DNA of 32,000 bases from Scytonema hofmannii PCC 7110. Its GTDB lineage: Bacteria; Cyanobacteriota; Cyanobacteriia; Cyanobacteriales; Nostocaceae. The notes below the pieces were generated by a model. The model saw only the letters and a program-made list of their open reading frames with translations, made no database searches and had not been told where the DNA came from. The stretch covers positions 5,780,824 to 5,812,823 of the forward strand of contig NZ_KQ976354.1 of assembly GCF_000346485.2 (NCBI RefSeq), in the 5' to 3' direction. This document shows, one piece after another, positions 1 to 22,188 of the stretch. Positions within the stretch are counted from its first letter, which is position 1. Every line of letters starts with the position of its first letter. The position numbers and the translations under genes are program-made.

Positions 1-440
1 TGGGACGGCTTCGTCGATTTAAGGCTAACAGCCTTCCTTCAGGATATGCTCTAGGAAAAATTGCGGGTCTTGGGTCTGTTCTGACTCGATGGGAAAAGTT
101 GTACTTCAACCCATTTCCCACTCAACAAGAACTAGAGGCATTAGCACAAGTGATTCAAGTGGAGGTTGAGAAATTAAGAGAGATGCTACCCACTAAAGGT
201 GTCACAATGATGCCTCGACCCATTCGATTATGTGCGGCTTGCTATGCAGAGTCACCTTATCACCGGATCGAGTGGCAGTTTAAGGACAAAATGAAGTGCG
301 ATCGCCATCAGTTGCGCTTATTAACAAAATGCACAAACTGTCAGACACCATTCCCCATTCCTGCTGATTGGGAAAAAGGAGAATGCTCGCATTGTTTTTT
401 GTCTTTTGCTAAGATGGTGAAGTGTCAAAAGCGTCGTTAG
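1..440 (+). CDS. tniQ: TniQ of a type V-K CRISPR-associated transposon, C-terminal part (5' end lies upstream of window)
   Basis: The frame of ORF 99..440 stays open back to nt 3 (GRLRRFKANSLPSGYALGKIAGLGSVLTRWEKLYFNPFPTQQELEAL...). The Cys/His zinc-ribbon motifs IRLCAACYAESPYHRIEWQFK...CDRHQL...CTNCQTPF...CSHC closely track ShCAST TniQ as I remember it. The small size fits V-K TniQ. Confidence 0.9.
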   Translation, partial: GRLRRFKANSLPSGYALGKIAGLGSVLTRWEKLYFNPFPTQQELEALAQVIQVEVEKLREMLPTKGVTMMPRPIRLCAACYAESPYHRIEWQFKDKMKCDRHQLRLLTKCTNCQTPFPIPADWEKGECSHCFLSFAKMVKCQKRR

Positions 441-793
441 CGACAAGCCTTGTCTGGCTGCTGGCACGGGATAATTTTGCTGTCAGCTTTTAAAATGTCA
501 AAGCGGCTCGAAATGCTCGTGCTTGAGGACATTGATATGAAAACTAAACTTGGAGAATGTGAGGTGTGTTACTAAAGCGATCGCATTTAATGTGGCACCA
601 GTTTTTGCTAAGTCTTGAGTAAACCGCTAAATAAAACCTACCCAAAGCTACCCATATCTATTCAGATGTGGACTTTTGTGTTGGCTTCCTGCTTCAACCG
701 GGACTGTCGGTGAGACCAGTGCTGTAGGAGGGTATCCCTCCGCAGGCAACTGGCGAACCCGTAAGGGCAGCACCCCGTCCACAGGCTAACCCA

Positions 794-855
794 GGCAGAA
801 GGAGCAAAAGCTTTGACTGCAAGCTTTTTGTTTGTTATTAATGGTTGCTTTATTT
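794..855. repeat. Dispersed ~60-nt repeat (GGCAGAAGG...GCAAAAGCTT..AAGCTTTTTGTTTGTTA..GTTGCTTTATTT); second copy at 9481..9544
   Basis: Direct comparison of 794-855 with 9481-9544 shows co-linear similarity. The GGCAGAAGG core also recurs in the inverted repeat at 16098-16255. Confidence 0.5.
805..840 (+). terminator. Possible intrinsic terminator downstream of the tnsB-tnsC-tniQ operon
   Basis: 8-bp stem AAAAGCTT / AAGCTTTT around the loop TGACTGC, followed by the T-rich TGTTTGTTATT. It lies ~365 nt after the tniQ stop, so assignment to tniQ is uncertain. Confidence 0.35.
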
Positions 856-868
856 ATACCGTGCTGTA

Positions 869-2053
869 CTAGCTTGTATGCAGTTGCTTGCCCAACCATC
901 TACGAAAGTTAGAATGGTAAAAACTATAACAAGTTTCTTCGCCAATTTGCTGCGTTTGTAAAAATTCAAACCAATTTTCTAAGACTTCCTCTACATCATA
1001 TTCATCTCGATCTAGAATTTGGGAAATTGCTTCTACTGAGATCCCTTGTTCTGTGGCAGTCAAAACTCGAAGCACCTCTAATGCAATATCGGACAAACCT
1101 TCATTGGTCATTTTCTCCCAATGTTGTTGGTAATATATTTCCAAACTAGGTGGTAATTGATGGTGTTGCAAAGGTTCTGCGTAGAAACTGTTAGTTATAC
1201 TGCTGATTGTCTGGCTGAGGTACATAAAATTATTTTCGCTTTCAGCAGTTAGGCGATCGCAAAATTCTGCGCCAGATATATGATGACCAAGTAGCCAGGA
1301 TTTTAAGTTGAGCCTTTCGCTACTTTCTAGATTGTCGTGTTTTTTCAGAGAAGGACTTAATGAGAGATAATATTGAATGTATTGACATAAGTCCTGACGA
1401 TTTTGCTCGGGAAAATCCGAGAGATTTAGAGTTTCAAATGGTGCTTCTATTAACAAACCCGATTTTTCTCTCAAGAAAGGACGGCGAGCAAGAACCACGT
1501 AAACTTTTTCTGGGAGATATCTGGGAAGATAAAAAATATTTGAACCCGGAATTTGATCGCTGTAACTTACTCTATCTAAAGCATCGATAACAACAATCAA
1601 TTTTTGATGCGGTTCTAATTGGTCGCTCGTTCTTTGAAGCAGAAGGGAGAGATGCCCGCTTCCCTCCGTAGCACTGTGAAAACTAGAATGTAGAGAAACG
1701 TTCGTGTCGAGTTCCTGTTCGCGCAACGTGTGCTTTGCGTGTAGGGAGCCATTTTTAACCGGAACAATTTGTTGATATACATCCTTGAAAAATTCCCCAG
1801 CACAATTTTTCCCCTCAATTTCAGCATTGTAATAGATAACTTGAGGGTTTTGGGTTACATATTGAGCAAGGATAGCACTTTTACCGCTACCGGGATAGCC
1901 AACAATCGTGAAATAACCGCGATTGTAATTTTGAAGAAAGTCAGCGATAGCTCTAAAAACAAAGTCACGACCAACAAAATTCCGGCTTTTTTCCCGAACA
2001 ACTTGCTGAAATGCTTTCGAGTATTGACTGGGAGGCGGTAACGAGGTACTCAT
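869..2053 (-). CDS. NACHT-type STAND P-loop NTPase, NTPase module only (no N-terminal effector, no repeat sensor)
   Basis: Walker A GYPGSGKSA; Walker B LIVVIDALDRV; C-terminal winged-helix-like CYSFYHSNFRRWL. Clear paralog of the 3815..5389 product (FVGRDFVF vs FCGRQFVF; NNFMYL in both; ETCYS(F/I)YH in both). Confidence 0.8.
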   Translation of the reverse strand: MSTSLPPPSQYSKAFQQVVREKSRNFVGRDFVFRAIADFLQNYNRGYFTIVGYPGSGKSAILAQYVTQNPQVIYYNAEIEGKNCAGEFFKDVYQQIVPVKNGSLHAKHTLREQELDTNVSLHSSFHSATEGSGHLSLLLQRTSDQLEPHQKLIVVIDALDRVSYSDQIPGSNIFYLPRYLPEKVYVVLARRPFLREKSGLLIEAPFETLNLSDFPEQNRQDLCQYIQYYLSLSPSLKKHDNLESSERLNLKSWLLGHHISGAEFCDRLTAESENNFMYLSQTISSITNSFYAEPLQHHQLPPSLEIYYQQHWEKMTNEGLSDIALEVLRVLTATEQGISVEAISQILDRDEYDVEEVLENWFEFLQTQQIGEETCYSFYHSNFRRWLGKQLHTS

Positions 2054-2161
2054 AGTCGTTGAAAACTAAAGCATATTAATAAGGAACATCTGTAGCCAAA
2101 GTCGCAGACAGTTGATTTGCGATCGCCAGAGCTAACTTATCTGTTACACGGGTTAAATCAT

Positions 2162-20099: not shown

Positions 20100-21307
20100 G
20101 TTTCAACAACCATCCCGGCTAGGGGTGGGTTGAAAGTTGTTCCTATGGATCTAGAGTCAAACACGACTTACGCGTTTCAACAACCATCCCGGCTAGGGGT
20201 GGGTTGAAAGGTAAAAATTGAGTCTCTTGAAAGCCATCAAGCGCGTTTCAACAACCATCCCGGCTAGGGGTGGGTTGAAAGAGTGCGGGTGTAAAGATCG
20301 TGACGTGCAGAGGCGAGCGAGTTTCAACAACCATCCCGGCTAGGGGTGGGTTGAAAGTTCCACGGTGAAAATTTTTCGCTTACAACCCGCACCAGTTTCA
20401 ACAACCATCCCGGCTAGGGGTGGGTTGAAAGCAAATGGCACCGAGTCAAGCGCATGGGGAGATTTGTGTTTCAACAACCATCCCGGCTAGGGGTGGGTTG
20501 AAAGGCTAATAACTGTGCTAGAGCAAAAAATAAGTAACATGTTTCAACAACCATCCCGGCTAGGGGTGGGTTGAAAGCGAAATGAGCTTGGTAGATTTTT
20601 TAGCAAAATGGGACGTTTCAACAACCATCCCGGCTAGGGGTGGGTTGAAAGAGGCAATTGCCCTCAGCTGCACAAATTGCCCAAGGGTTTCAACAACCAT
20701 CCCGGCTAGGGGTGGGTTGAAAGATTCATTTGGATCGCAATCCCCTCAACTTCAAAAAGTTTCAACAACCATCCCGGCTAGGGGTGGGTTGAAAGAAGTC
20801 GGTTTCTTCCGCCGCCTTGCGTGGGAGTTTCAACAACCATCCCGGCTAGGGGTGGGTTGAAAGCGGAGGATGCGAGTTATCGCCTGATGCGATCGCACGT
20901 TTCAACAACTATCCCGGCTAGGGGTGGGTTGAAAGCCGATCCTTTGGAGTGGGCAGAAGATCTGAGAGTGCGAGTTTTAACAAGTATCCCGGCTAGAGGT
21001 GGGTTGAAAGAATTAACTCCTCCTAATGCGTATCTTCTGGCGTTTTTGGTTTCAACAACCATTCCGGCTAGGGGTAAGTTGAAAGGAGTGCCACTGTTGG
21101 TGGAATCCTGGTTGCGGCTGGAGTTTTAACAAGTATCCCGGCTAGAGGTGGGTTGAAAGATTGATGATGTACCGGGGTAGACCAATCCCTCCGGAATGTT
21201 TCAACAACCATCCGTACTAAAGATGGATTGAAAGATTTGGTGCAAAATAGGGTCAAGTTATTTTTCAAAAATTTCAACAATTATCTGGCTATAGAATCAG
21301 TTCAGTA
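20100..21307 (+). CRISPR. Type V-K CRISPR array: 16 repeats of 37 nt (20100-21234) plus a degenerate 17th (21271-21307); spacers 31-39 nt
   Basis: Repeat GTTTCAACAACCATCCCGGCTAGGGGTGGGTTGAAAG starts at 20100, 20174, 20245, 20321, 20395, 20468, 20541, 20615, 20687, 20759 and 20827. Variant copies start at 20899, 20974, 21049, 21123 and 21198. Degeneration toward the 3' end places the leader on the tracrRNA side. Confidence 0.97.
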
Positions 21308-21761
21308 GAAGATAGTAACAAAAAATTCACTTGTGTGAAGGCTAAAGAGAGGAGAACACGATATCAGGAGTGCGATTGAAATGCGTCCGTTAGTCACTGA
21401 ATTCTCCTGCCGAACTATCAACTAAAGAGCAAAAAGTTGCATATAGCAATCCTACCTGATTTGTGAAAAAATCTCAGTACTGTAGGGTGGGCTATGCCGC
21501 ACACATGATATTACTGGTGGACAATGCCCACTCTACCTGTATTTCAAAAATCAAATAGGAGTCCTATATACACTATATACACTTACGCAAAGCTAAACTA
21601 TTCGTATTTTTGAAGCAGATACGTCAGGAATTATTTGACTGTGAATTTCAAACAGAACTAGCAACAGTTTTCAAGGATAGTAGCGTCAGGTTGTGTCCAA
21701 TACCACTTTGGCTTAGGAAAGAGTAATCACACACAACTAAAATACAAAAGTAAGCCTAAAA

Positions 21762-21935
21762 TAGAGGTAAGTCTGGGGTGTTGACTCTGTGCCTTTTTTG
21801 GAGTGTTGTTCATGCAAAATTTGAGAATCTTGACTAGAACTGAAACTCTTGCTAAGTAACGCTTTCAACGAAAATAAAGCCATATAGTACAAATTTACTA
21901 AAAATCAACAAAATCAACACCCTAGGGTAAGTCTG
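21762..21935. mobile_element. MITE-like insertion: 9-bp terminal inverted repeats flanked by a ~13-nt direct duplication
   Basis: TAGAGGTAAGTCTG | GGGTGTTGA ...(~130 nt)... TCAACACCC | TAGGGTAAGTCTG. The inverted repeat is 21776-21784 / 21914-21922. The direct repeat is 21762-21775 / 21923-21935. Confidence 0.35.
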
Positions 21936-21968
21936 TCAATTAGTCCAGTAGCAAGACATTATGTTAGA

Positions 21969-22188
21969 CGACATTAATTTGTTAACGTTAGTTGGAACTA
22001 ATTCGACGACATTAATTCGTTAACAGCGACATTAATTTGTTAATCGACACTAAATGGAGAAACAGGACGACATTAATTTGCGAAAAGTTCCTATAATTGA
22101 ATTGATGAGACAAACTATTCTAAACGACATTAATTTGCGAAAAACGACACAAATTTGCGAATTACGACATTTAATTTGCGAATGTACA
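21969..22188. mobile_element. CAST transposon end (RE in ShCAST nomenclature; distal to tnsB) with 8 direct TnsB-binding-type repeats and terminal TGTACA
   Basis: CGACATTAATTTG(T/C)(T/G)AA-type repeats start at 21969, 22007, 22027, 22045 (degenerate), 22068, 22125, 22145 and 22165. The last one runs into ...AATTTGCGAATGTACA (22183-22188), analogous to the ShCAST end ...AATTTGTCACTGTACA as I recall it. Confidence 0.8.

Follow-up and report, generated by a model that had tools for sequence, protein, structure and literature searches.

CRISPR-associated transposons (CASTs) of type V-K, such as ShCAST, lack tnsA and are composed of tnsB, tnsC, tniQ, cargo, a divergent regulator, cas12k, a tracrRNA gene and a CRISPR array, with cargo between tniQ and cas12k as the standard layout (PMC9938897, section 6). 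CASTs without TnsA transpose replicatively and form cointegrates (bioRxiv 10.1101/2021.02.11.430876), and defence cargo has been catalogued in 6,549 Tn7-like transposons, 78 of them with Cas12k (Benler et al. 2021, PMC8649781). Here we analysed a CAST of Scytonema hofmannii PCC 7110 (genome G000, 12.29 Mb in 40 contigs) that fills the first 22.2 kb of a 32,000-nt stretch of DNA, hereafter the window (G000:C1:5780824-5812823). We put at about 80% the probability that the whole region is one complete type V-K CAST, canonical in gene order, loaded with a mosaic of defence-type cargo and probably immobile. Because the order tniQ, cargo, cas12k is the published V-K norm, the layout itself is not special, and since both the cargo position and defence cargo on Tn7-like elements are already known, this reading is only partly new. 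Handles such as G001 and G003 denote other genomes compared, and handles such as L001 and L029 denote DNA loci extracted around anchors; the relatives of G000 include Scytonema sp. HK-05.

Boundaries, core genes and guide RNA region

An earlier note, made from the letters of the window, had called this region a type V-K CAST and had proposed a search for its left end, tnsB and tnsC beyond the window. Extension of the contig leftward confirmed this call. Directly left of the window it uncovered tnsB, tnsC, the 5' part of tniQ and an inverted end of matching sequence; the rest of tniQ, Cas12k, the array and the second end lie within the window. The element measures 25,248 bp, from C1:5777764 to C1:5803011 (window 22188), so that 3 kb of it lies beyond the window's left edge. 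Its gene order is end, tnsB, tnsC, tniQ, cargo, Arc regulator, cas12k, tracrRNA, array, end. The core features were as follows (window positions unless L001 is named).

L001 9194-11074, tnsB, 626 aa, Mu-transposase C-terminal domain, 450 bits against ShTnsB
L001 11078-11932, tnsC, 284 aa, AAA_22/TniB, 98 bits against ShTnsC
3-440, plus strand, 3' part of tniQ, Pfam TniQ, 210 bits against ShTniQ
17101-17274, minus strand, Arc-type ribbon-helix-helix (RHH) regulator (56B-like), 57 aa, PF21432 at 6.7e-13, divergent from cas12k
17491-19428, plus strand, cas12k, 645 aa, NCBIfam NF038191 at 943 bits (cut-off 150)
19570-20057, plus strand, tracrRNA gene region, 80-91% nucleotide identity to the region 3' of cas12k in relatives
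20100-21307, plus strand, CRISPR array of 16 repeats with 15 spacers and a terminal unit, followed by a degenerate 17th repeat
21964-22188, plus strand, array-side transposon end with TnsB-site repeats and a TGTACA terminus, finishing in GCGAATGTACA at 22188

The tnsB-side end, TGTACATTCGCAAATT, begins 3,060 bp left of window base 1 (C1:5777764; L001 8941) and recurs in inverted orientation at the array side, finishing at C1:5803011. Over the terminal 16-24 nt the two ends are near-identical inverted repeats, and their repeat type also matches: six 18-nt TnsB-site-like repeats occupy 21968-22161 and occur nowhere else in the window (chance expectation 0.02), and similar repeats are borne by the tnsB-side end. 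Searching the cargo for leftover core genes, internal ends, repeats or tracrRNA returned none, and the genome holds a single cas12k and a single V-K-type tnsB. The terminal repeats at about 21969-22188, for which the earlier note had entertained a nested element, belong to this CAST. On the tnsB side, tnsC, tnsB and the end itself lie within G000:C1:5777764-5780752, and full-length tniQ (L001 11886-12440, 184 aa) starts 115 nt left of the window. With the end at L001 8941 and tnsB starting at 9194, there is no room for tnsA, leaving a tnsB-tnsC-tniQ operon without it.

Besides this gene order, the element shares with ShCAST and other V-K CASTs 37-nt repeats ending in GTTGAAAG, TGTACA termini and repeated TnsB sites. 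Cas12k aligned end to end (residues 1-640) with ShCas12k (PDB 7n3o, 729 bits). Its stretch IGVSFSL, aligned with VGVSLGL of ShCas12k and which we take to be the RuvC-I region, has no Asp, consistent with the earlier description of a Cas12k lacking that catalytic residue. In a tree of 56 Cas12k proteins it was sister to a ten-member clade and sat on a long terminal branch, with at most 66% identity to any relative found. The regulator noticed earlier at 17101 is present, and could be specified as a minus-strand RHH gene of Arc type (57 aa) with counterparts at the equivalent site in 33 related loci; Ziemann et al. 2023 (PMC9938897) reported Arc_1/Arc_2-type regulators adjoining cas12k in some members of the family.

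A ShCAST-like tracrRNA had also been proposed, and the gene is indeed recognisable, but it is split mid-gene by a 78-nt insertion (19678-19755). The insertion consists of a 10-bp imperfect duplication (TTCTCATGCT / TTCTGATGCT) flanking a 68-bp palindromic element with 19-nt inverted termini, and in all five aligned relatives the conserved tracrRNA blocks are contiguous and the insertion is absent. Elsewhere in the genome the palindromic element has just partial copies (C1:873187-873341). The canonical V-K repeat was borne out: 16 repeats of 37 nt span 20100-21234, with the degenerate 17th at 21271-21307, and 13 of the 16 reach the gathering score of Rfam CRISPR-DR15, the only Rfam family found in the window and its flanks. 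Compared with ShCAST-type elements, the 78-nt tracrRNA insertion, a TnsC only ~30% identical to theirs and a Cas12k at most 66% identical to any relative found set this locus apart. As a CAST, it is one more divergent orthologue of the textbook layout, probably stranded.

Insertion site and mobility

The surroundings depart from those of ShCAST and its relatives: an adjacent tRNA gene is lacking, as are a 5-bp duplication and a pair of anchor spacer and protospacer. Immediately outside the ends, the 5 bp read GTTGG on the tnsB side and TTTGC on the array side, and the target-site duplication that the earlier note had hoped to match with TTTGC does not exist. ARAGORN found no tRNA gene in the window or in the 25 kb to its left (window, L001, L002 and L091). 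All 16 spacers, together with the degenerate 17th unit and possible anchors next to truncated repeats, were compared with the genome and with 76 tRNA loci plus 60-bp flanks; this revealed no homing guide beyond chance, and the region after the array had no 10-mer in common with the flank. In 30 relatives searched for an empty site, the two flanks were never adjacent; they lie 17.5 kb apart in the sister genome G001.

In G001 the orthologue at the tnsB-side flank is a 1511-aa NERD/Ser-Thr-kinase/PglZ gene (BREX-like). Genome G000 retains residues 1056-1125 of this kinase-PglZ protein at the CAST end and residues 1074-1511 18.4 kb further left, whereas residues 1-1055 and the adjoining 1825-aa gene are missing from the genome. 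In total ~17 kb of host DNA is missing at the CAST flank. The left PglZ fragment lies past an island of ~18.5 kb that carries a tyrosine integrase at its right end and is bounded by an exact 70-bp direct repeat (C1:5759146-5759215 and 5777639-5777708; L091 3147-3216 and L001 8816-8885). This integrase island is inserted within the kinase-PglZ remnant, 55 bp from the CAST end. To the right of the CAST, window 22486-32000 holds an Ssp-type phosphorothioation locus with DUF4007, a cysteine desulfurase, a GmrSD N+C protein and a DndB-like protein. The CAST is located in a host defence island, between the BREX-like kinase-PglZ gene and the Ssp locus, and not at a tRNA homing site.

Intramolecular replicative transposition of the Mu/Tn3 type gives rise to adjacent deletions without target duplication. 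An adjacent deletion of this kind, produced by replicative transposition without TnsA, or else a later recombination, would have removed the flanking host DNA, and the truncated flank gene is most likely the product of such an adjacent deletion. The locus can be viewed as an example of a natural off-target or rearranged V-K insertion in which a defence gene was truncated, ~17 kb was lost and no target duplication was left, and it is relevant to the known tendency of V-K systems towards replicative and untargeted events.

Small repeats have entered the array-side part of the element and its flank.

21441-21686, no strand assigned, two dispersed small repeats between the array and the end; 41 near-full genomic copies of 21441-21570
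22189-22261, no strand assigned, flanking palindromic small repeat that abuts the terminal TGTACA; 64 genomic copies of its first 45 nt

The break in the tracrRNA gene and the invasion by small repeats suggest an element that probably can no longer move. Another small dispersed repeat was seen near the array-side end at 22420-22460, where several such families occur with 41-64 or more copies. An orphan remnant resembling the array-side end (TGTACATTCGCAAATTAAATGTTGCAATTCG) is located at C1:513800-513846 (L094 4307-4347), 3.5 kb from tRNA-Gly(CCC) and with no CAST genes nearby. We considered the orphan end at C1:513846 as an earlier home of the element and rejected it, as only ~40 bp of the end is left and the tRNA-Gly gene is on the wrong side.

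NLR-like modules in the cargo

The ~16.7 kb of cargo between tniQ and the cas12k regulator has the gene content listed in the earlier note, and Pfam or profile matches confirmed its three STAND NTPase genes, the WD40 gene and the GmrSD-like gene. The cargo is patched together from four or more self-contained modules of defence-island type: NACHT/WD40/NACHT, GmrSD with helix-turn-helix (HTH) genes, Bell/NB-ARC-TPR, and an RHH/458-aa pair with further unknown genes. The STAND-containing modules comprise the following features.

869-2053, minus strand, bare STAND NTPase (AAA_16/NPHP3_N), 394 aa, 41%-identical paralogue of the NACHT module
2162-3805, minus strand, arm plus eight-blade WD40 sensor gene, 547 aa, Pfam WD40 at 3.4e-96
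3815-5389, minus strand, NNH5-NACHT gene, 524 aa, PF22736 NNH5 at 6.7e-50 and NACHT at 4.8e-9, TAG stop at 3817-3815
9753-10193, plus strand, Bell-like helical N-terminal effector open reading frame (ORF), 146 aa, ending in an in-frame TGA at 10191-10193
10194-12770, plus strand, NB-ARC-TPR body, 858 aa, NB-ARC at 3e-16 and TPR_12 at 1.5e-148, in the frame of the Bell-like ORF
10202-10232, plus strand, candidate H-type RNA pseudoknot, beginning 8 nt past the TGA

These features form two units, and both follow the tripartite logic of validated bacterial NLR defence families (Avs1-4, bNACHT), in which an N-terminal effector, a STAND NTPase and a C-terminal repeat sensor are combined, with NNH5-NACHT and WD40 in successive ORFs in the first and a Bell-like ORF with NB-ARC-TPR in the second. 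In the first unit, the NNH5-NACHT and arm-WD40 ORFs share one frame and are separated by the TAG and three codons. A query spanning this junction found homologues in nine other genomes with the two parts adjacent and the break at the same position; the split falls in different frames in G003, G007, G010, G020 and G023, and in the same frame with TAA in G005, and only once, in G009, are NACHT and WD40 fused into a single 1435-aa ORF. Judged from this conservation among relatives, the NACHT/WD40 split is the usual architecture and thus no sign of damage. In G003, G005 and G009, as in the window, NACHT and WD40 pairs have nearby a short paralogue (~350-400 aa) with NACHT only, and the three genes behave as a cassette.

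In the second unit, the position of the in-frame TGA is shared by homologues in G002, G007 and G009, and the nucleotides after it are almost the same. Stem 1 of the candidate pseudoknot pairs 10202-10206 with 10215-10219, and stem 2 pairs 10210-10213 with 10229-10232. Of 301 genomes in the order, 15 contained the pattern AGYCGYCYGAAYGGGAACRGRYAAAGT, and none a reversed control. We assembled 20 pseudoknot loci from at least 17 genomes (L102, L103, L107 and L112-L128), and in all 20 a stop stands exactly 6 nt 5' of the pattern (15 TGA, 5 TAG, no TAA). The upstream ORFs, of 125-322 aa, are all in frame, and CTA or CTG usually follows the stop. Pairing was retained in 171 of 171 cells (100%), compared with at most 54% in slid controls, and three pairs carry compensatory changes, namely C-G to U-A in stem 1 and G-C to C-G or A-U in stem 2. 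A stop followed by an 8-nt spacer and a covarying pseudoknot is the signature of programmed readthrough, as in the gammaretroviral gag-pol signal; here the stop is TGA or TAG and never TAA, and readthrough itself is predicted from the sequence. Selenocysteine or pyrrolysine at the stop was ruled out, as homologous junctions use either TGA or TAG, and termination-reinitiation is unlikely given that the codon after the stop is mostly CTA or CTG and no start codon precedes the P-loop.

Since the TGA is conserved together with the pseudoknot, the NB-ARC gene is intact and not a pseudogene. Two products are probably made across the leaky stop, the effector on its own and, when a ribosome now and then reads through, a fusion of effector and sensor. 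The arrangement, in which an NB-ARC-TPR gene directly follows an ORF for a small helical effector, resembles the paired Bell and NLR genes known from filamentous bacteria (Dyrka et al. 2020, bioRxiv 10.1101/2020.01.06.895854), from which the present unit differs in that both ORFs are in one frame, the NLR ORF has no amyloid motif of its own and, in most relatives, no start codon. The upstream domains found at this junction are Bell-like helices, lipase-like hydrolases and a caspase-like domain, the names being read from motifs.

The earlier description of a cargo packed with NLR-like sensors was fair, but modest in extent, as the STAND genes form two units only, the three-gene cassette and one NB-ARC-TPR gene. 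The genome has 34 NB-ARC and 52 NACHT matches, partly overlapping, or about one STAND gene per 190 kb, so that 16.7 kb should hold ~0.09 STAND genes where Pfam detects two, ~20-fold above genome density; such genes cluster elsewhere too. An alternative that we consider rather unlikely is that the STAND cargo consists of decaying pseudogenes, or of ordinary cyanobacterial signalling genes picked up by chance, and not of immune sensors. The in-frame stops at 3817-3815 and 10191-10193 could be taken for decay, curated defence cut-offs are not reached, and the abundance of NB-ARC and NACHT matches in the genome is in keeping with signalling genes. Both interruptions are conserved architectures in relatives, however, and the pseudogene reading of the two stops was rejected on this ground. 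The excess over the expected density also argues against chance acquisition, and what relatives carry N-terminally at this junction is of death-effector type (Bell-like, lipase-like and caspase-like); Bell/amyloid systems protect E. coli against phage (bioRxiv 10.1101/2024.11.07.622273).

Immune sensors are preferred over pseudogenes for the cargo, and its genes are predicted to act against phage. The idea of an abortive-infection battery on a CAST holds as far as defence-type genes are concerned, but defence cargo had already been catalogued (PMC8649781) and no Avs cut-off was reached. PADLOC, which had been suggested for the cargo, gave a full-length HEC-05 match to the DUF262 protein discussed below, but only weak matches to the STAND genes. 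As in the elements of Benler et al. 2021, several defence-type modules lie between core genes and the insertion is in a defence island; what differs is a cargo dominated by STAND/NLR-like genes together with a GmrSD-like gene linked to cas12k, and the words NACHT and GmrSD are absent from the main text of that paper (PMC8649781). NLR-like systems, including a "one gene, two products" design of stop plus pseudoknot, are carried intact on RNA-guided transposons, and CAST carriage offers a route for their spread between filamentous cyanobacteria.

The DUF262 module and the pairing of transposase with targeting genes

Two further features of the locus concern genes that accompany cas12k. The first is a GmrSD-like module.

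6492-8363, plus strand, GmrSD/BrxU-like DUF262 NTPase with a C-terminal His-Me (HH...N...N) motif, 623 aa, GmrSD_N at 7e-29
8421-8813 (o130) and 8891-9199 (o102), minus strand, two small paralogous HTH-like genes with weak HTH matches

A profile of 22 DUF262 homologues matched BrxU (PDB 7p9k, 1.5e-8) and SspE (PDB 6jiv), and DGQQR as well as H496, H497, N519 and N528 were invariant among the 22. With the GmrSD/BrxU/SspE family the protein shares the N-terminal DUF262 domain with DGQQR, the HH...N...N motif and the HEC-05 match; it differs in a middle part unrelated to the solved structures, in the two HTH paralogues that precede the gene, and in its stereotyped place by cas12k. Pfam GmrSD_C is not matched, though the invariant HH...N...N motif of that type is present. 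A fold search with the AlphaFold2 model of o102 (pLDDT 73) gave no significant match.

Comparison with related V-K CASTs showed that the DUF262 gene and the HTH pair recur directly upstream of cas12k, so that the GmrSD-like type IV enzyme recognised by the earlier note is present but is a recurrent companion of cas12k and not random cargo. Among the loci L004-L082 and L130-L153, the usual order in relatives, for instance in Nostoc sp. NIES-4103 (L018), where the module abuts cas12k, is o102, o130, DUF262, Arc regulator (opposite strand), cas12k, with the HTH genes on the strand of DUF262 and the DUF262 gene ending 400-650 nt before cas12k. In a set anchored on cas12k, 15 of 80 loci had a DUF262 homologue at 72-79% identity, nearly all in this order, and in 13 or more loci of the set cas12k came next after DUF262 on the same strand. 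An independent search anchored on DUF262 covered 301 genomes: cas12k lay directly downstream on the same strand in nine of ten homologues at 62% identity or more, and likewise in six of 19 at 43-53% identity, where Cas12k was as divergent as 28-35%. Pairwise identities of DUF262 and Cas12k covaried (Mantel r = 0.77, 0 of 2000 permutations), and DUF262 was the more conserved (mean pairwise identity 67% versus 57%). This linkage is far tighter than that of ordinary cargo, and it either bears on DNA processing by TnsA-less CASTs in native hosts or defines a preferred defence slot. We found no paper joining Cas12k with DUF262, GmrSD, ParB-like or DndB, and two comparative V-K papers carry no mention of the linkage. 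In the window the module, which abuts the regulator and cas12k in related CASTs, has been rearranged and pushed away, with DUF262 on the plus strand, the HTH genes inverted downstream of it, and the module as a whole 9.1 kb from cas12k.

One interpretation is that the GmrSD-like module is a functional transposon accessory, for example a nuclease that replaces TnsA, aids cointegrate resolution or discriminates donor DNA. It keeps one position and orientation, immediately upstream of the regulator and cas12k, although Cas12k divergence spans 28-65%, its NTPase and nuclease motifs are invariant in a protein that is better conserved than Cas12k, and 5'-end processing and cointegrate handling in native V-K systems have been stated to be an open problem (bioRxiv 10.1101/2021.02.06.429022). 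Set against this, the gene is found in just ~20% of the V-K CASTs sampled, an unrelated gene can take its place behind the HTH pair, 13 of the 19 homologues at 43-53% identity are not beside cas12k, and the DUF262 family is otherwise known from type IV restriction or phosphorothioate-sensing defence. ShCAST functions in E. coli without the module. On balance we regard an accessory function as unlikely, and its more specific form, in which the HTH pair and GmrSD/BrxU-like block are a lineage-specific accessory of RNA-guided transposition that supplies missing DNA processing (cointegrate avoidance or resolution) or donor/target discrimination, as quite unlikely. We favour a regulator-headed slot by cas12k that usually holds a DUF262 nuclease; a role in transposition is possible, not indicated.

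Several points weigh against our reading of the region as a whole. The DUF262 gene is patchy on the Cas12k tree, with 9 changes for 11 positives, much as if shuffled; the HTH pair precedes an unrelated 457-aa gene instead in five loci; and the DUF262-cas12k linkage may reflect a favoured cargo slot and not a transposition function. No STAND gene reaches a curated cut-off for validated defence (Avs1b scored 27.9 bits against 1500 in NCBIfam), and filamentous cyanobacteria hold dozens of STAND genes of unknown role. The loss of host DNA could stem from events unrelated to the CAST, and the hairpin inserted in the tracrRNA gene might be tolerated.

The second feature is an uneven divergence of the core proteins. 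Relative to the same relatives (e.g. L029), TnsB was ~43%, TnsC ~30%, TniQ 74% and Cas12k 62% identical, and this gap between TnsB/TnsC and TniQ/Cas12k suggests that transposase and targeting modules have been exchanged. TnsB, TnsC and TniQ of the same type (75-85% identity) are linked to cas12k in an Iningainema and a Nostoc genome (L079 and L082). At these two loci (L082 6891-10867, and L079) tniQ nearly abuts a 5'-truncated cas12k, in decayed elements without cargo.

Carried further, an exchange of this kind could mean that the element is a chimera, in which tnsB-tnsC of one Tn7-like lineage recombined with the tniQ, cargo, cas12k and array of another, and that the cargo, as it now stands, has never moved as a single unit. 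The identity gap agrees with this, as do the ShCAST scores (98 bits for TnsC versus 210 for TniQ), the lack of a target-site duplication and the displacement and partial inversion of the DUF262 module relative to ~20 relatives. The element's ends, however, are near-identical inverted repeats over 16-24 nt and of the same repeat type, no internal ends or gene remnants were found, and the occurrence of the same TnsB/TnsC/TniQ type with cas12k in two other genomes (L079 and L082) points to an established lineage. We hold such a chimera to be improbable and retain one complete CAST as our reading. The earlier suggestion of a new orthologue for engineering stands in so far as the proteins look intact and divergent (Cas12k at most 66%), but is tempered by the interrupted tracrRNA gene, the rearranged flanks and the absence of a detectable homing guide or target; its value lies mainly in the joining of a TnsB/TnsC pair of unusual divergence to TniQ and Cas12k of ShCAST-like type.

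The remaining cargo genes lie between the NB-ARC-TPR gene and the cas12k regulator.

13087-13959, minus strand, 290-aa gene, phrog_34986 at 3.9e-21 (function unknown)
14770-15027, minus strand, 85-aa RHH gene, weak RHH_1/ParG match, divergent from the 458-aa gene
15236-16612, plus strand, 458-aa gene (o458), partner of the divergent RHH gene

Searches of Pfam, PHROGs, PADLOC and NCBIfam with the 290-, 458-, 85- and 84-aa ORFs returned nothing informative beyond phrog_34986. Another CAST clade carries, upstream of cas12k, a gene like that for the 85-aa RHH protein, along with decayed sequence similar to the C-terminus of o458. Finally, the first 12 nt of the CRISPR repeat (GTTTCAACAACC) occur six times within the TPR repeats (window 11126-12145), where they encode SFNNL, which looks like coincidence.

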